A stretch of DNA of 17,675 bases from the UHGV virus genome UHGV-0262902, one strand, 5' to 3'. Positions 3,652-17,612 of the stretch are shown here, piece by piece. The notes below the pieces were generated by a model. The model ran no database searches and was not told the DNA's origin. It was given only the letters and a program-made list of their open reading frames with translations. The translations under genes and the position numbers were made by a program. The DNA is from a virus. The stretch's first letter is position 1. Each line of letters starts with the position of its first letter.

Positions 3652-4287
3652 ATGAACACTCTCGCAAATATCCAGGAACTCGCGCGCGCACTGCGCAACA
3701 TGATCCGCACCGGCCTTGTCGTCGAAACCAACCTTAAAGCCGGTCGCTGCCGTGTGCAGACCGGCGGCATGTGCACCGACTGGCTTCAGTGGCTGACCTG
3801 TCGTGCCGGGCGTTCGCGCACATGGTGGGCGCCTTCCGTGGGGGAGCAGGTGCTGATTCTGGCCGTGGGCGGTGAACTTGACACGGCGTTTGTTCTGCCG
3901 GGGATTTATTCCGGCGATAACCCCGCGCCGTCTGCGTCGGCGGATGCCCTGCATATCCGTTTCCCTGACGGGGCGGTGATTGAGTATGAACCCGAAACCA
4001 GTGCACTCACGGTAAGCGGAATTAAAACGGCCAGCGTGACGGCTTCTGATTCTGTTACTGCCACGGTGCCGGTGGTCATGGTGAAAGCATCAACCCGCGT
4101 CACTCTGGACACGCCGGAGGTGGTCTGCACAAACAAGCTGATCACCGGCACGCTGGAAGTGCAGAAGGGCGGGACGATGCGCGGCAACATTGAACACACC
4201 GGCGGTGAACTCTCATCAAACGGTAAGGTACTGCATACCCATAAACACCCCGGCGACAGCGGCGGCACAACCGGGGGACCTATATGA
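3652..4287 (+). CDS. V: Baseplate central spike gpV (211 aa)
   Basis: First gene of the baseplate block; length matches P2 gpV; stop overlaps W start. Confidence 0.85.
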   Translation: MNTLANIQELARALRNMIRTGLVVETNLKAGRCRVQTGGMCTDWLQWLTCRAGRSRTWWAPSVGEQVLILAVGGELDTAFVLPGIYSGDNPAPSASADALHIRFPDGAVIEYEPETSALTVSGIKTASVTASDSVTATVPVVMVKASTRVTLDTPEVVCTNKLITGTLEVQKGGTMRGNIEHTGGELSSNGKVLHTHKHPGDSGGTTGGPI

Positions 4288-4631
4288 CAGCGCGTTATCT
4301 CGGAATGAATCGCAGTGATGGCCTGACTGTCACTGACCTTGAGCATATCAGCCAGAGTATCGGCGATATCCTGCGCACACCGGTCGGCTCACGGGTGATG
4401 CGTCGTGATTACGGCTCGTTGCTGGCGTCAATGATTGACCAGCCGCAGACCCCGGCGCTTGAGTTGCAGATTAAGGTCGCCTGTTACATGTCCGTGCTGA
4501 AATGGGAACCCCGCGTCACCCTGTCATCCGTCACCACTGAGCGCAGTTTTGACGGGCGAATGACGGTCACGTTAACCGGTCAGCACAACGACACCGGCCA
4601 GCCACTTTCGTTAACCATCCCTGTGAGTTGA
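4284..4631 (+). CDS. W: Baseplate wedge protein gpW (gp25-like; 115 aa)
   Basis: Length and position match P2 gpW between V and J. Confidence 0.85.
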   Translation: MTARYLGMNRSDGLTVTDLEHISQSIGDILRTPVGSRVMRRDYGSLLASMIDQPQTPALELQIKVACYMSVLKWEPRVTLSSVTTERSFDGRMTVTLTGQHNDTGQPLSLTIPVS

Positions 4632-4635
4632 AACC

Positions 4636-5544
4636 ATGCCGATTATCGACCTGAACCAGCTACCCGCACCGGATGTGGTCGAGGAGCTGGACTTTGAAAC
4701 CATTCTCGCTGAACGCAAGGCGACACTGATTTCCCTTTACCCGGAAGACCAGCAGGAGGCGGTCGCCCGTACCCTGACGCTGGAATCCGAGCCTCTCGTC
4801 AAACTGCTGGAGGAAAATGCTTATCGTGAGCTTATCTGGCGTCAGCGTGTGAATGAGGCCGCACGGGCGGTGATGCTGGCCTGTGCCGCCGGTAATGACC
4901 TTGATGTGATTGGTGCCAATTACAACACCACGCGCCTGATTATCACCCCGGCAGATGATTCGACCCTCCCGCCGACACCGGCAGTGATGGAATCTGATAC
5001 CGATTATCGTCTGCGTATTCAGCAGGCGTTTGAAGGTTTAAGCGTCGCCGGGTCGGTGGGGGCCTATCAGTATCATGGTCGCAGTGCCGACGGGCGTGTC
5101 GCGGATATTTCTGTCACCAGTCCGTCTCCGGCCTGCGTCACCATCTCTGTGCTGTCACGTGAAAATAACGGTGTGGCATCCGAAGACCTGCTGGCCGTGG
5201 TGCGTAACGCCCTTAATGGCGAGGACGTCAGGCCGGTGGCCGACCGCGTGACCGTGCAGTCTGCCGCCATTGTTGAATACCAGATAAACGCCACGCTTTA
5301 CCTTTACCCTGGTCCCGAAAGCGAACCCATCCGCGCTGCTGCCGTGAAAAAACTGGAAGCGTACATCACGGCGCAGCACCGGCTGGGGCGCGACATCCGT
5401 CTGTCTGCCATTTATGCCGCTTTGCATGTGGAAGGCGTGCAGCGTGTCGAGCTGGCCGCACCACTGGCCGACATTGTGCTCAACAGTACGCAGGCGTCTT
5501 TCTGTACCGAATACCGCGTCGTGACCGGAGGCTCGGATGAGTGA
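4636..5544 (+). CDS. J: Baseplate assembly protein gpJ (302 aa)
   Basis: Length and position match P2 gpJ; 3' end overlaps the I start. Confidence 0.85.
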   Translation: MPIIDLNQLPAPDVVEELDFETILAERKATLISLYPEDQQEAVARTLTLESEPLVKLLEENAYRELIWRQRVNEAARAVMLACAAGNDLDVIGANYNTTRLIITPADDSTLPPTPAVMESDTDYRLRIQQAFEGLSVAGSVGAYQYHGRSADGRVADISVTSPSPACVTISVLSRENNGVASEDLLAVVRNALNGEDVRPVADRVTVQSAAIVEYQINATLYLYPGPESEPIRAAAVKKLEAYITAQHRLGRDIRLSAIYAALHVEGVQRVELAAPLADIVLNSTQASFCTEYRVVTGGSDE

Positions 5545-6067
5545 TTCGCGCCTGCTGCCGACCGGCTCATCACCGCTTGAAGTCGCCGCCGCAAAAGCCT
5601 GTGCGGAAATTGAAAAAACGCCGGCCAGTATTCGTGAGCTGTGGAACCCGGACACCTGCCCGGCAAATCTGCTGCCGTGGCTGGCGTGGGCGTTTTCGGT
5701 CGACAGGTGGGATGAAAAGTGGCCGGAAGCGACAAAACGCGCCGTTATCCGCGATGCCTATTTCATCCACTGTCATAAAGGCACTATAGGCGCAATCCGG
5801 CGTGTGGTGGAGCCGCTCGGCTATCTCATCAACGTGACGGAGTGGTGGGAAAACAGTGACCCGCCCGGCACCTTCCGGCTTGATATTGGTGTACTGGAAA
5901 GCGGTATCACAGAGGCAATGTATCAGGAAATGGAACGGCTGATTGCCGATGCCAAACCTGCAAGCCGTCACCTTATTGGTCTGAACATTACCCGGGACAT
6001 TCCCGGCTACCTGTTCGCCGGTGGTGTGGCTTACGACGGCGATGTAATTACGGTTTACCCCGGATAA
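5537..6067 (+). CDS. I: Baseplate protein gpI (176 aa)
   Basis: Length and position match P2 gpI, directly upstream of tail-fibre gene H. Confidence 0.85.
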   Translation: MSDSRLLPTGSSPLEVAAAKACAEIEKTPASIRELWNPDTCPANLLPWLAWAFSVDRWDEKWPEATKRAVIRDAYFIHCHKGTIGAIRRVVEPLGYLINVTEWWENSDPPGTFRLDIGVLESGITEAMYQEMERLIADAKPASRHLIGLNITRDIPGYLFAGGVAYDGDVITVYPG

Positions 6068-6077
6068 GTGAGGAAGA

Positions 6078-8075
6078 ATGAGCACAAAATTCAGAACCGT
6101 TATCACCACTGCCGGTGCAGCAAAGCTGGCAGCGGCAACCGCGCCGGGAGGGCGGAAGGTCAACATTACCACGATGGCCGTCGGGGATGGAGGTGGTAAA
6201 TTGCCTGTCCCGGATGCCGGACAGACCGGGCTTATCCATGAAGTCTGGCGACATGCGCTGAACAAAATCAGCCAGGACAAACGAAACAGTAATTATATTA
6301 TCGCAGAGCTGGTTATTCCGCCGGAGGTGGGCGGTTTCTGGATGCGTGAGCTTGGCCTGTACGATGATGCGGGAACATTAATTGCCGTGGCGAACATGGC
6401 CGAAAGTTATAAGCCAGCTCTTGCCGAAGGCTCAGGGCGTTCGCAGACCTGTCGCATGGTCATCATCGTCAGCAGTGTGGCCTCAGTGGCGCTGACCATT
6501 GACACCACAGCGGTGATGGCGACGCAGGATTACGTTGATGACAAAATTGCAGAGCATGGACAGTCACGACGTCACCCGGACGCCTCGCTGACCGCAAAAG
6601 GTTTTACTCAGTTAAGCAATGCGACCAACAGCACGTCTGAAACACTGGCCGCAACGCCGAAAGCGGTAAAGGCCGCGTATGATCTTGCTAACGGGAAATA
6701 CACTGCGCAGGATGCCACCACAGCGCGAAAAGGCCTTGTCCAGCTCAGTAGCGCCACCAACAGCACGTCTGAAACGCTCGCCGCAACACCAAAAGCGGTA
6801 AAGGCAGCATATGACCTTGCTAATGGGAAATACACTGCACAGGACGCCACCACAGCGCGAAAAGGTCTTGTCCAGCTCAGTAGCGCCACCAACAGCGATT
6901 CTGAAACGCTTGCGGCAACGCCAAAGGCGGTTAAGACAGCGTATGACCTTGCTAACGGAAAATACACTGCACAGGACGCCACCACGGCGCGGAAAGGTCT
7001 TGTTCAGCTCAATAGTGCCATCAACAGCGATTCTGAAACGCTGGCTGCAACACCAAAAGCGGTGAAGTCTGCCTATGACAATGCTGAAAAACGTCTTCAG
7101 AAAGATCAAAATGGCGCGGATATTCCTGATAAAAGATTATTCCTGCGCAATATTGGAGCAACAAATTCAACAACCATGTCTTTTAGTGGTGGTACAGGAT
7201 GGTTCAGGCTGGCAACTGTAACCATGCCACAGGCCAGTTCCGTGGTTTACATAAGTCTGATTGGTGGTGCTGGATATAATGTTAACTCCCCTATGCAGGC
7301 TGGTATATCTGAACTTGTTCTTCGTGCGGGAAATGGAAATCCAAAAGGTCTTACTGGTGCGTTATGGCGACGGACATCGGTTGGATTTACTAATTTTGCA
7401 TGGGTGAATACATCCGGTGATACCTATGATGTTTATGTTGAAATAGGTAATTACGCCACAGGTGTTAATATTCAGTGGGATTATACCAGTAACGCCAGCG
7501 TAACGATTCATACATCACCAACTTATACAGCGAATAAACCAACAGGTCTTACAGATGGAACTGTATATGTAATTTACAGTTCGCACATTAAACCGACTGC
7601 TGCTGATGTTGGGGCGTTGTCATTATCTGGAGGTCAATTGAATGGTGCACTGGGCATCGGAACATCCAGTGTTCTTGGCGGTAACTCAATTGTTTTGGGT
7701 GATAATGACACGGGCTTTAAACAAAATGGTGACGGTAATCTGGATGTTTATGCTAATAACGTTCATGTTATGCGCTTTGTCTCCGGTAGCATTCAAAGTA
7801 ATAAAACCATAAATATTACGGGTCGTGTTAATCCCACAGATTACGGTAACTTTGATTCCCGCTATGTCCGGGATATCCGGCTTGGTGGTGCTGCCACATA
7901 CAAACCTGCGAACAATGGCATGACATGGACACATCAGGCACCGTCCGGGTGTGTATATTCCGGCATTATTATTCAGGATACCGGCTCAAACTCTGCCGAT
8001 AACATTGGTGGCGTATATTACAGACCGGTGCAGAAATACATTAACGGGACATGGTATAACGTGGCACAGGTATAA
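6078..8075 (+). CDS. H: Tail fibre protein gpH (665 aa) with internal tandem repeats and an AT-richer distal domain
   Basis: GGAAG before ATG 6078; conserved-looking N-terminus; four 44-aa repeats in the shaft; the region from about 7100 on is visibly lower in GC, as expected for a swapped receptor-binding module. Confidence 0.85.
   Translation: MSTKFRTVITTAGAAKLAAATAPGGRKVNITTMAVGDGGGKLPVPDAGQTGLIHEVWRHALNKISQDKRNSNYIIAELVIPPEVGGFWMRELGLYDDAGTLIAVANMAESYKPALAEGSGRSQTCRMVIIVSSVASVALTIDTTAVMATQDYVDDKIAEHGQSRRHPDASLTAKGFTQLSNATNSTSETLAATPKAVKAAYDLANGKYTAQDATTARKGLVQLSSATNSTSETLAATPKAVKAAYDLANGKYTAQDATTARKGLVQLSSATNSDSETLAATPKAVKTAYDLANGKYTAQDATTARKGLVQLNSAINSDSETLAATPKAVKSAYDNAEKRLQKDQNGADIPDKRLFLRNIGATNSTTMSFSGGTGWFRLATVTMPQASSVVYISLIGGAGYNVNSPMQAGISELVLRAGNGNPKGLTGALWRRTSVGFTNFAWVNTSGDTYDVYVEIGNYATGVNIQWDYTSNASVTIHTSPTYTANKPTGLTDGTVYVIYSSHIKPTAADVGALSLSGGQLNGALGIGTSSVLGGNSIVLGDNDTGFKQNGDGNLDVYANNVHVMRFVSGSIQSNKTINITGRVNPTDYGNFDSRYVRDIRLGGAATYKPANNGMTWTHQAPSGCVYSGIIIQDTGSNSADNIGGVYYRPVQKYINGTWYNVAQV
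6597..7095 (+). repeat. Four tandem in-frame 132-bp (44-aa) repeats inside H
   Basis: Repeat anchors AAAGG at 6597, 6729, 6861 and 6993, each exactly 132 bp apart; peptide unit approx KGLVQLSSATNSTSETLAATPKAVKAAYDLANGKYTAQDATTAR; the fourth copy degenerates after ...AYDNAEKR. Confidence 0.85.
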
Positions 8076-8078
8076 TTT

Positions 8079-8606
8079 ATGCAGCATTTAAAAAATATTA
8101 CGGTGGGTAATCCAAAAACGGTTGAACAATATCAATTGACAAAGGGCTTTGATGTTGTCTGGTTTTTTACAGAAGATGGTAAGAACTGGTACGAAGAACA
8201 AAAGTATTTTGCTGATGACACGATAAAAATAGCGTACGACAAAGATAATATCATCCGCTATGTGGAAAAGGATGTGACAGCTATCAGACCGGATGGATTA
8301 AGTGTGGTTGAAGTGGCGGATATTACTGCTAACCGACGGGCGGATATTTCAGGGGGCTGGATGTTTAAGGACGGCAAAGTGATTAAACGCATTTATACGG
8401 CAGAGGAATTACAGCAGCAGGCAGAAATTCGGAAAGCCAGACTTCTTGCAGATGCTGAATCCGTGATTTTGCCGCTGGAGCGCGCGGTCAGACTGAACAT
8501 GGCAACAGAGGAGGAGCGCACACGGCTGGAGGCTTGGGAACGCTACAGCGTTCTGGTCAGTCGTGTGGATCCTGCAAATCCTGAATGGCCGGAAATGCCG
8601 CAATAA
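8079..8606 (+). CDS. G: Tail fibre assembly chaperone gpG (175 aa)
   Basis: Immediately downstream of H (4-nt gap); length matches P2 gpG; AT-rich like the distal part of H. Confidence 0.8.
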
Positions 8607-8859
8607 GTTGTATGAACTCTGGTGTGAGCTTACATATCTATGGCACAGAGTAAAGCCTAATCTGACAGTCCGCTCTGTGCCAAAAGCGGGCGTTGATCAC
8701 ATGGGCTATGCTAACCCATTATAACAGTGTAACAGAGCTACCCACGATTACTCCCGGCCTCTAAAGTTTGCTACATAATAAAGAATCATTCCCTTTAATC
8801 TGATCTTAGCGGTATAGTATCTGGTGACCAGTAAGACAATCACCGACACTACAATCATG

Positions 8860-8887
8860 TTGATTTGCATTGTGTTTAGTCTAAAAT
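8860..8887 (+). promoter_or_regulatory. Candidate sigma70 promoter for the cargo operon
   Basis: TTGATT at 8860-8865, 16-nt spacer, TAAAAT at 8882-8887, about 50 bp upstream of the cargo gene start. Hexamer match only; other AT-rich matches exist nearby. Confidence 0.3.
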
Positions 8888-8936
8888 TGTGGTGCGAAAA
8901 GACCAATGAAAGTTATTGATAATAAGGAGGAATCAA

Positions 8937-9722
8937 ATGTCAGGAATAAGATGGTTGGATAAAAAAGATTTAATCCTTAAAGGAATAAATGAAGGCACCT
9001 ACCCAGAATCAGTTTACAAGTTCAGAACTATAGATAAAGCCTGTGATATTCTTCAAAAAAAAGAATTTTACTTTTCATCAGCGGAAAATTTTAATGATCC
9101 ATTTGATTGTATGCTGGATGAGGAAAAAGAATACTCTTTATCAGACTTTACTTGTTGGTTATATTCATATCAGAATGGATTAACCAAGAAGGCAAAGCAG
9201 AACTTAATAGATGTGTATAAAGAAAACAGCCAAGCATTTAATGATCTAGTTAAAAATATAAAAACAAAAGCCGTCAATGCCCATGGCATTTTATCGCTAT
9301 CTAAAACTAATGAAAATGTTCTTTTATGGTCTCATTATGCGGAGAACCATACCGGAGTTGCTATAAAACTCAATATTGCTAAGGATCCAGAGTTCTTTAT
9401 AACCCCCCAAAACATAGTATATATGAAGCAATATATTCCATTAAATTATCTTAGAGACCCTAAAAAATCAATACTCGACACACTCTCTACGAAATCAATG
9501 GATTGGAATTATGAAGAGGAGATTAGAGTTTATAAAAGTAATATTGGAGCCTATAAGATTAAGCCAGAGGCAATAACTGATGTTTTTTTTGGTTTGAAAA
9601 CGCTGGAACAGGATATTGCAAAAATCAAAAATATATGTAGTGAAAATGGTCTAAGCCATGTGAAGTTTCATCGGGCTGAAAAAAAATATGGAGAATTTGC
9701 GCTACGTTTTAATCCTATTTGA
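8937..9722 (+). CDS. Cargo protein A: DUF2971-like protein of unknown function (261 aa)
   Basis: Consensus SD AAGGAGG at 8924-8930, 6-nt spacer, ATG 8937. AT-rich codon usage. Motifs YKFR (27-30), FYFSSAENFNDPFDC (44-58) and LLWSHYAENHTGVAIK (129-144) resemble the DUF2971 signature as I remember it; no characterised function is known to me. Confidence 0.7.
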   Translation: MSGIRWLDKKDLILKGINEGTYPESVYKFRTIDKACDILQKKEFYFSSAENFNDPFDCMLDEEKEYSLSDFTCWLYSYQNGLTKKAKQNLIDVYKENSQAFNDLVKNIKTKAVNAHGILSLSKTNENVLLWSHYAENHTGVAIKLNIAKDPEFFITPQNIVYMKQYIPLNYLRDPKKSILDTLSTKSMDWNYEEEIRVYKSNIGAYKIKPEAITDVFFGLKTLEQDIAKIKNICSENGLSHVKFHRAEKKYGEFALRFNPI

Positions 9723-9808
9723 CTTTTCTATTTAGTAGTTAAATGATAGTGCATTACGGGCCAATTAAATTTAATTCTATGGTTGTGTAGACAATAAAAG
9801 GTAACTAG

Positions 9809-10294
9809 ATGAATCAAGATGAGTTAAAAAATTTTTGTGTTGATGTGCGTGAAGCACTTGAGAAGATGACCAAAAAAGATCATTCACGGCTGTCATCCTT
9901 TAGAAATTCGAACTTTCCAGTGGGATGCTGCGGAGATACATCGAAACTGCTTGCTTATTTGCTTTATCAGCAATTCGGGATAGTCTCTGAAGTACTCGCA
10001 GGATATTACTATGAATCTGATCATAAGTCCCCCGCCAGCGGTCTTTCAAACGGTAATTCACATGCTTGGCTTGTCGTGGATGGAATGATTGTTGATTTGA
10101 CTGCAGATCAGTTCAACGACCGGGGATATAACAATCTTCCCGTCATGATTACATCAGACACTAGGTTTCATGACCTCTTTGCCAATCGTAATGCCTCGTT
10201 TCAACCTTCTCAAGGTAATGAAATTATTCTACCTGATATTCTAAAAATGACAGCATCACATGTGCAGCAAAGGCTTAAAGAGCGAGGTTGGTAA
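9809..10294 (+). CDS. Cargo protein B: small protein with transglutaminase/papain-like Cys-His-Asp motif arrangement (161 aa)
   Basis: ATG 9809 after a weak AAGG; AT-rich. Motifs G-C-C-G-D (Cys40/41), S-H-A-W-LVVDG (His85) and VDLTADQ (Asp96/Asp100) appear in the order and spacing typical of transglutaminase-like cysteine peptidase cores. Assignment is motif-based only. Confidence 0.6.
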   Translation: MNQDELKNFCVDVREALEKMTKKDHSRLSSFRNSNFPVGCCGDTSKLLAYLLYQQFGIVSEVLAGYYYESDHKSPASGLSNGNSHAWLVVDGMIVDLTADQFNDRGYNNLPVMITSDTRFHDLFANRNASFQPSQGNEIILPDILKMTASHVQQRLKERGW

Positions 10295-10613
10295 TGCGGG
10301 TGCAGCAGAATCTAAAGCTGATACTTAAAATTATATAGGAAGAGCATAAACTTATCCTAAATCTGGCTGTAATAGATCCTTTCATATATCGGCCAGATTA
10401 ATATGAAGTAATCCAAATTAGTGTCTGAAAATATAATCAGCTCCATAACAATAGATTTATCGCTTAAAAATAACGTCAACATGAGGGTAGAAAACATCCC
10501 TAAAGATAAGTCTGGTCTAACCTTTGCTCCTCGCTCAAAGCAGACTGTCAGAATTGATAGCGTTTGGGCTATGTAAATTGTCAGTCGGAAAATGAGTGAG
10601 TACAAATCAGGAC

Positions 10614-10641
10614 AGGCGGGCGAATTGCCCGCCTTTTCTTT
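10614..10641 (+). terminator. Rho-independent terminator closing the cargo region, upstream of FI
   Basis: Stem GGCGGGC (10615-10621), loop GAATT, stem GCCCGCC (10627-10633), then TTTTCTTT. The reverse strand lacks a T-run, so it is oriented for the + strand. Confidence 0.7.
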
Positions 10642-10737
10642 ATCTGTTGTTTCATCCACTGACCAGTCAGGTCAAATAGCGTCTCATGCTCTGCACAACA
10701 GAAAATAGTTGCACCCATTAACCACGGAGTTAAACGG

Positions 10738-17121: not shown

Positions 17122-17340
17122 ATGTTTCATTGTCCTTTATGCCAGCATGCCGCACATGCGCGTACAAGCCGCTATATTATTGACACGACAAAAGAGCGTT
17201 ATCACCAGTGTCAGAACGTGAATTGCAGCGCCACGTTCATCACTTATGAGTCGGTACAGCGATACATCGTGAAGCCGGGAGAAGTCCACGCCGTAAGACC
17301 GCACCCGTTGCCGTCAGGGCAGCAAATTATGTGGATGTAA
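17122..17340 (+). CDS. ogr: Ogr, zinc-finger late-gene transcription activator (72 aa)
   Basis: GGAAGAGG at 17106-17113 before ATG 17122; product MFHCPLCQHAAHARTSRY...CQNVNCSATF has a four-Cys arrangement and matches P2 Ogr from memory. The ORF-track start at 17059 is a TTG extension. Confidence 0.85.
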   Translation: MFHCPLCQHAAHARTSRYIIDTTKERYHQCQNVNCSATFITYESVQRYIVKPGEVHAVRPHPLPSGQQIMWM

Positions 17341-17351
17341 TTACATACAGG

Positions 17352-17377
17352 AAGCCCCTCAGTCGAGGGGCTTTTTT
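17352..17377 (+). terminator. Rho-independent terminator after ogr
   Basis: Stem AAGCCCCTC (17352-17360), loop AGTC, stem GAGGGGCTT (17365-17373), followed by a six-T run. Confidence 0.75.
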
Positions 17378-17441
17378 GTCGATGTGGTCAATGTGTGGAC
17401 GTGACCAGAAATAAATCCTTTTATTTCATTGTATTACGCGT

Positions 17442-17468
17442 AAAAAATAAGCCCGTGTAAGGGAGATT
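17442..17468. other. P2-type attachment-site core (27 bp)
   Basis: AAAAAATAAGCCCGTGTAAGGGAGATT read at 17442-17468, identical to the P2 att core as I recall it; it lies about 100 bp after ogr, where att sits in P2. Confidence 0.6.
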
Positions 17469-17612
17469 ACACAGGCTAAGGAGGTGGTTCCTGGTACAGC
17501 TAGCATTTTATGGGTTATGTTTTTCAGCGAAACAGATGATAACCTTAATAAATGCAGCTGTATGTGATCGGTTTCTAAGAATTTTCCATCCGGGAAAAAT
17601 AATCGAAATTAA

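Follow-up and report, generated by a model that had tools for sequence, protein, structure and literature searches.

The window analysed here is a stretch of 17,675 nucleotides of the UHGV virus genome UHGV-0262902. According to the open reading frame map and Pfam matches, its genes lie in the order L, X, holin, lysozyme, lysA/B/C, R, S, V, W, J, I, H, and G, followed by two cargo genes, FI, FII, E/E', T, U, D, and ogr. Between positions 3652 and 10737, the window was 99.9% identical to a prophage adjoining yegQ in the chromosome of E. coli KKo009, for which the RefSeq annotation gives H as "tail fiber protein" and G as "tail fiber assembly protein." Taken together, gene order, Pfam matches, and the KKo009 prophage identify the window as the half of a P2-like (Peduovirus) E. 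coli prophage that carries the late genes. The placement of H between I and G, with Tail_P2_I at 5537-6067 and Caudo_TAP at 8079-8606, is the same as in P2. Coordinates of the features of H, G, and the adjoining segment are collected in Table 1.

Table 1. Features of the tail fiber and chaperone genes and of the segment that follows them, in window coordinates
Feature	Coordinates	Strand	Basis
Gene H, tail fiber, 665 aa	6078..8075	+	ORF; Pfam; RefSeq WP_001537281.1 (identical protein)
H constant backbone-type part, residues 1-340 (baseplate-attachment collar and repeat shaft)	6078..7097	+	Identity, GC
Tandem repeat, 132 bp, 3.5 copies (44-aa Phage_fiber_2 units)	6624..7079	+	Tandem Repeats Finder
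Putative left crossover box (box 1), QKDQNGADIP, H residues 341-350	7098..7126	+	Base-level junction alignment
Block B, distal H, residues 351-504	7127..7589	+	Comparison to phage loci
Block C, distal H, residues 505-590, glycine-rich	7590..7847	+	Comparison to phage loci
Conserved box 2, NFDSRYVRDIRLG, H residues 591-603, second breakpoint	7848..7886	+	Identity limits
Block D, C-terminal H tip, residues 604-665	7887..8075	+	Comparison to phage loci
Gene G N-terminal domain, variable, residues 1-85, predicted fiber-binding	8079..8333	+	Identity, GC, PMC9608196
Gene G C-terminal domain, conserved, residues 86-175	8334..8606	+	Identity, GC
Post-G conserved segment, right edge of P2-like homology	8607..8689	+	Alignment ends

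Fibers of the P2 gpH type are trimeric and bind a receptor on the host surface, which is the LPS core in the case of P2. The H protein of the window begins with the collar domain Phage_tail_fib (PF12571; E 1.1e-58, residues 1-151), and the collar is followed by Phage_fiber_2 (PF03406) repeats in four stretches (E 1.8e-80). The underlying 132-bp tandem repeat had 88% matches and a score of 667 in Tandem Repeats Finder, and self-hits were offset by 132 bp. Among relatives, the length of H ranged from 642 to 919 aa. At the distal end, block C was weakly similar to the S16 gp38 adhesin (6f45, E 3.8e-5), and the H tip aligned with the C-terminal domain of the Mu fiber S (PDB 5yvq_A, E 2e-15).

Chaperones of the Tfa type are needed for the folding and trimerization of the fiber. 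Gene G lies directly 3' of H; it starts at 8079 and is separated by 3 nt from the H stop at 8075. The whole protein matched Caudo_TAP (PF02413, E 1.5e-33) and aligned end to end with Mu U (PDB 5yvq_B) at 72% identity (E 8e-82 over residues 1-175). Identity was unevenly distributed between the two domains: the N-terminal domain was 65-69% identical to P2 G and Mu U/U' and 95-98% identical to the G proteins of fiAA91-ss and P22H1, and the C-terminal domain was 78-84% identical to P2 G and Mu U. These domain identities fit the published model of Tfa proteins, in which a variable N-terminal domain binds the fiber tip and a conserved C-terminal domain mediates trimerization, and for which the Mu Tfa structure has been summarized (PMC9608196).

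The base composition of the region was then determined in 300-nt windows. GC content was 0.54-0.60 across V-W-J-I and proximal H, 0.47 at 6901-7200, and 0.41-0.45 from 7051 to 8100; a single change-point fit over 4636-8200 located the shift at 6993 and improved the log-likelihood by 33 nats. The shift to lower GC that the initial annotation had located in H near 7100 was thereby borne out, and the uniform GC across H that it had named as counterevidence to an exchange was not seen. The change in codon usage that it had reported for distal H and G was confirmed as well. GC3 was 0.63 in the backbone (4103 codons) versus 0.34 in H 341-665 and 0.38 in G 1-85 (module versus backbone, Fisher test, p = 1e-28), the lowest value among 326-codon backbone blocks being 0.537. 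The drop occurred chiefly at third codon positions, with little change at positions 1 and 2, and the synonymous-codon likelihood under backbone usage was -1.307 for the module versus -1.064 +/- 0.041 for equally long backbone blocks (z = -6.0). The low GC had further been described as continuing through G. This was correct for the average of the gene (0.458) and for its 5' half, where GC was lowest (0.33-0.47), but not for its 3' half (8334-8606), where GC was 0.48-0.58 and GC3 was 0.53; the low-GC stretch really extends from about 7000 to about 8330.

A GC profile of the same shape, with a dip and a recovery over the 3' half of G, was also seen in P2, fiAA91-ss, 12474II, P22H1, vB_YpM_115, and Mu S/U. 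Since the dip is common to P2, to other P2-like phages, and to Mu S/U, it marks a module family and not a recent event. Low GC3 is thus a property of the pool of fiber/chaperone modules circulating among P2-, Mu-, and P1-type phages, rather than a mark of recent import. Composition alone is no proof of a swap in this phage; it is the identity breakpoints that show the swap. We also considered whether the recovery of GC within G might be an extra breakpoint specific to this phage. This reading was rejected because every relative showed the same rebound and because identity to fiAA91-ss and P22H1 was approximately 95% across the whole of G.

The identity breakpoints were mapped by local BLAST of positions 3652-10737 against eight fetched phage loci. 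Over 3652-7126, the window was 96.8% identical at the DNA level to the Peduoviruses vB_YpM_115 and 12474II; the proximal alignments to P2 and fiAA91-ss reached only to 6803 and 6953, respectively, because the repeat numbers differ. Positions 7098-7885 were 92.5% identical to the Muvirus vB_YpM_5 and, up to 7867, 91.3% identical to the 49-kb phage vB_YpM_39, both matches being fiber cassettes located beside a hin-type invertase. The 107-kb phage CMS-2020a matched 7164-7769 at 90.6%. Toward the 3' end, identity was 94.7% to the Peduovirus P22H1 over 7590-8679 and 94.8% to fiAA91-ss over 7837-8687, and merely 77-81% to P2, 12474II, and vB_YpM_115 over 8016-8695 (for P2, 77% over 8021-8689).

Base-level alignment of the left junction showed that the P2-like and Mu-like parents can both be aligned to the window at 7098-7126 alone, the P2-like identity ending at 7126 and the identity to the Mu-like cassette starting at 7098. 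This homology breakpoint is located roughly 100 bp 3' of the position at which composition changes, and it coincides with the division of the protein at H residue 341 that had been proposed earlier. The QKDQNGADIP motif of box 1 was present in P2-like H proteins, in vB_YpM_39 H, and in Mu S. The match of box 1 to the Mu-like cassette is imperfect and spans 29 bp, a small length for RecA-type recombination; longer homology may have existed between the true parents at this place, or another mechanism may have operated. At the second breakpoint, the Mu-like identity ended at 7885 and the fiAA91-ss identity began at 7837. The conserved sequence of box 2 was found in P2, fiAA91-ss, P22H1, vB_YpM_115, vB_YpM_39, vB_YpM_5, and Mu S.

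The three blocks of distal H differed in their closest relatives. Block B was 91-95% identical to vB_YpM_5 (Muvirus) and vB_YpM_39 and 90.6% identical to CMS-2020a, and was absent from P2, fiAA91-ss, 12474II, vB_YpM_115, and P22H1. Block C was about 95% identical to the Mu-like cassettes and to P22H1 alike. Block D was 97-98% identical to fiAA91-ss and P22H1; the other compared phages gave high-identity BLAST matches for its last 18 residues only, and Mu S was 49% identical over 51 residues.

Searches with the two parts of the H protein gave a corresponding picture. H 1-340, encoded at a GC of 0.49-0.60, was 97.4-97.9% identical to many Peduoviruses at full coverage, and the best 25 records in tblastn were all P2-like (classified as such or P2-sized), with 90.7-97.9% identity and 99-100% coverage. 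For H 341-665, full-length tblastn matches were obtained only with the Muviruses vB_YpM_5/6 and the hin-bearing phage vB_YpM_39 (82.5-82.8%); the next-ranked matches were P1-like or plasmid-sized phages, and Peduoviruses covered residues 499-665 only. Best hits of both halves to the same lineage, which the initial annotation had likewise named as counterevidence, were therefore not what we found, H 1-340 being P2-like and H 341-665 matching elsewhere. Its central proposal, an exchanged distal fiber with its chaperone, is supported by the identity breakpoints and by the occurrence of 7098-8606 as a single block of 93.4% identity in another phage. The exchange stands, but the notion of a single indivisible module does not, since the H tip and G assort independently of the middle of the fiber. 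As for G itself, the protein belongs to the family, being orthologous over its full length to P2 G and Mu U, and its allele is one that fiAA91-ss and P22H1 also have.

The assortment of these parts was followed in viral contigs. In a sample from a single collection, chosen by similarity to this G allele and made up of phylogenetically non-independent contigs, all 80 contigs with the allele (94-99% identity) also carried the H tip at 7887-8075 (89-99% identity). Sixty-eight of them had enough upstream sequence for the blocks preceding the tip to be scored: B and C (the middle of the fiber, 7127-7836) were both present in 9/68, C alone in 10/68, and neither in 49/68. Conversely, 80 viral contigs with block B placed it in P2-like contexts, beside gix and an invertase, or on contigs of 84-99 kb. 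In the P2-like contexts, block B occurred mostly with this tip and this G, and in the gix/invertase contexts it occurred with other tips and chaperones. Distal H thus consists of at least three separately assorting blocks (B, C, and D), and block D and G are co-inherited.

The relation of the module to invertible tail fiber segments was most apparent in one viral contig, L123, in which 7098-8606 was found as one colinear block of 1509 bp (93.4%) that ended exactly at the chaperone stop codon. This block has a Resolvase/HTH_7 invertase and the gix site TTATCTAAAACCTCGGTTTACAGGAA at one end and a convergent U'-S' arm at the other. In vB_YpM_5, vB_YpM_39, and L123, similarity to the window begins 28 bp downstream of a gix site, which places box 1 at 28 bp inside gix in the invertible segments. 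With homology that starts 28 bp inside gix and ends at the U stop codon, the exchanged unit 7098-8606 corresponds to exactly one Sv-U arm of a Mu-type/P1-type invertible segment. The window itself had no gix/cix/hix-like site (0 matches to TTNTCNNAAACCNNGGTTTNNGANAA when up to 3 mismatches were allowed), no invertase homologue (the best E in a tblastn search with Mu Gin was 3.0), and no second, opposite cassette (U'-S'v), Mu U and U' matching 8079-8606 on the plus strand only. The fiber of the window is thus fixed in one orientation and unable to switch, and its genes do not qualify as an invertible segment.

We consider it very probable that H is a chimera recombined at short conserved coding boxes, in which the distal part is exchangeable and determines host range and in which block D and G are inherited together. 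The collar domain and the 44-aa repeats of H 1-340 would anchor the trimeric fiber to the baseplate, and H 341-665 would recognize the host surface, as suggested by homology and by the work on host range of P2 H. The variable N-terminal domain of G is predicted to bind the tip, and its conserved C-terminal domain is predicted to promote trimerization. Exchange would have taken place through homologous recombination at box 1 (7098-7126) and box 2 (7848-7886).

It could be argued instead that no exchange occurred in this lineage and that the low GC is an old vertical trait of P2-type H and G, imposed by constraints on the fiber tip (amino acid or other). The GC dip and rebound that P2, fiAA91-ss, 12474II, vB_YpM_115, P22H1, and Mu S/U have in common agree with such a trait. 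However, the drop is mainly synonymous (GC3, 0.34 versus 0.63), phages that are 96.8% identical up to 7126 become unalignable straight after it, blocks B and C are missing from 49 of the 68 contigs with the same G and tip, and the best full-length matches of H 341-665 lie outside the Peduoviruses. We therefore give this explanation almost no weight, and as a complete account it is already contradicted by the breakpoints. An exchange without homologous recombination, in which a Din-family invertase (Gin/Cin/Hin type) captured the cassette at a gix-like site in H, is also improbable, although somewhat less so. The limits of the homology, 28 bp inside gix and at the U stop, delimit exactly one arm, which speaks for such a capture, and PMC8986868 cites a proposal of this kind by Sandmeier (1994). 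Yet the window contains no degenerate gix match even at 3 mismatches and no invertase homologue (Mu Gin tblastn, E of at least 3), and the junction lies inside a box alignable to both parents and not at the gix core. Recombination at the boxes is the most likely route of exchange, and the invertase route is the weaker alternative.

Transfer may have proceeded from an invertible segment to a P2-like phage or in the reverse direction. A broader reading, which we put forward tentatively and regard as possible but rather doubtful, is that the invertible segments of Mu-, P1-, and related phages serve as a standing reservoir of Sv-U arms for P2-like phages with fixed fibers. In such a reservoir, the QKxQNGADIP box, 28 bp inside gix, would act as a dedicated linker, and tip and chaperone would be re-assorted at the NFDSRYVRD box. 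If this were true, it would provide a testable "grammar" of crossover boxes for fiber exchange and for engineering.

In their 1992 paper on the sequence of P2 H and G (J Bacteriol 174:1462), Haggard-Ljungquist, Halling, and Calendar are reported to have concluded that P2, Mu, P1, lambda, and the T-even phages exchange segments of their tail fiber genes horizontally, and a 1994 review by Sandmeier is reported to have discussed the link to invertase sites; both works are cited in PMC8986868. Tail fiber mosaicism among P2, Mu, and P1 has been known since 1992, and the present finding is an ordinary one. Compared with P2, the H and G genes of the window have the same operon position and domain layout, a chaperone of the same length (175 aa), and a matching drop in GC that covers distal H and the 5' half of G. 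In contrast, alignment of P2 H to H of the window is confined to residues 1-251 (94%), block C (40%), and the final 18 residues, and P2 G is 66% identical in the N-terminal domain and 82% identical in the C-terminal domain; the distal fiber of the window is therefore a different allele. The Sv-U cassettes of the Mu G segment and the P1 C segment resemble the module in the colinear arm (93.4%, L123), in the 72% identity of Mu U to G, and in the alignment of the tip to Mu S, but differ from it by their gix sites, invertase, and second inverted cassette. fiAA91-ss and P22H1 share the H tip (97-98%), G (93-98%), and DNA of 94.7-94.8% identity from 7590 or 7837 to about 8680; however, both lack block B, fiAA91-ss also lacks block C, and P22H1 has a diverged and longer proximal H, with an H protein of 919 aa.

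Beyond annotation, the meaning of these results is limited: the prophage is confirmed to carry a chimeric host recognition module, so that its host range cannot be read from the P2-like backbone. A host range unlike that of P2 is plausible. Any actual shift could be slight, given that every phage with a related module was propagated on E. coli, Shigella, or rough-LPS Yersinia pestis. In P2, the part of H that determines host range was shown to be the C-terminal one, and fusions of P2 H at residue 370, combined with the cognate chaperone, redirect P2/P4 particles (PMC9942202). The junctions at 7098-7126 and 7848-7886 and the co-inheritance of the tip with the N-terminal domain of G agree with the fusion points used in that re-targeting work (PMC9942202). 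The mapped junctions and the co-inheritance of tip and chaperone could guide re-targeting designs for P2/P4 particles.

No isolated phage with the whole H-G pair at high identity was found in the collection, in that no record covered at least 80% of 6078-8606. The combination is known from E. coli prophages: at least 80% of 6800-8700 was present in 69 of 5426 complete genomes. Downstream of G, 8690-10517 had no match in any of the eight fetched phage loci. Published accounts of P2 defense hotspots, in the excerpts considered here, either describe the old/tin locus or leave the G-FI interval unmentioned. In local BLAST, the alignments to P2, 12474II, fiAA91-ss, P22H1, and vB_YpM_115 all stopped at 8679-8695. 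The DNA downstream of G is unrelated cargo, and the cargo 3' of the conserved post-G segment is strain specific.

Over its whole length, the distal part of H together with G (7098-8606) was most closely related to the silent arm of an invertible fibre segment in IMGVR_UViG_2537562172_000001 (L123), a 36.8-kb viral contig that also encodes a tape-measure protein and a gpU of P2 type. The segment in L123 is complete, and the expressed fibre, which is that of the U'-S' arm, has 783 aa. Within H itself, we observed a tandem repeat whose units each encode 44 aa of Phage_fiber_2 type. The 132-bp repeats in the H genes of relatives vary in both copy number and register, and their H proteins range from 642 to 919 aa, suggesting that unequal crossing-over alters the length of the shaft.

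Coordinates of features in the window and in L123
Feature	Sequence	Position	Strand	Description
Complete invertible fibre segment	L123	3276-8395		invertase, gix, Sv-U, U'-S'
Tandem repeat in H	window	6624-7079		132-bp unit, 3.5 copies, 88% identity
AT-rich cargo interval	window	8690-10517		between G and FI; GC 0.31-0.41
Cargo gene 1	window	8916-9722	+	DUF2971 protein
Cargo gene 2	window	9809-10294	+	sub-threshold YunG match only
ogr	window	17122-17340

The G-FI cargo is strain-specific. It was found in only 1 of the 80 viral contigs having the same G, and the gene found between G and FI differs in each of the P2-like phages compared, the position being occupied by fun(Z) in P2. The DUF2971 protein matched the phage-defence candidate PDC-S31 in PADLOC (E 2.6e-46). 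Downstream of the cargo genes lies a strong terminator-like hairpin (10614-10634).

At the left end, the initial ~141-150 bases (within 1-150) are not P2-like; they contain repeated GATCTCC/ATGTTATT motifs and give a 98% match to the end of an ISEc12 element (IS21-like), which in E. coli FDAARGOS_1286 adjoins istA. Since P2-like sequence begins at position 142, with the M-L intergenic region, the source prophage appears to have been interrupted immediately upstream of gene L. FDAARGOS_1286 carries a near-identical prophage (99.2%), which is defective because its tape-measure gene T is split by the same kind of element (locus L170, 14411-16990). At the right end, the window closes with 63 bases of host DNA, namely the 3' end of the gene yegQ; since ogr ends before them, the prophage-host junction falls somewhere in ~17341-17612.
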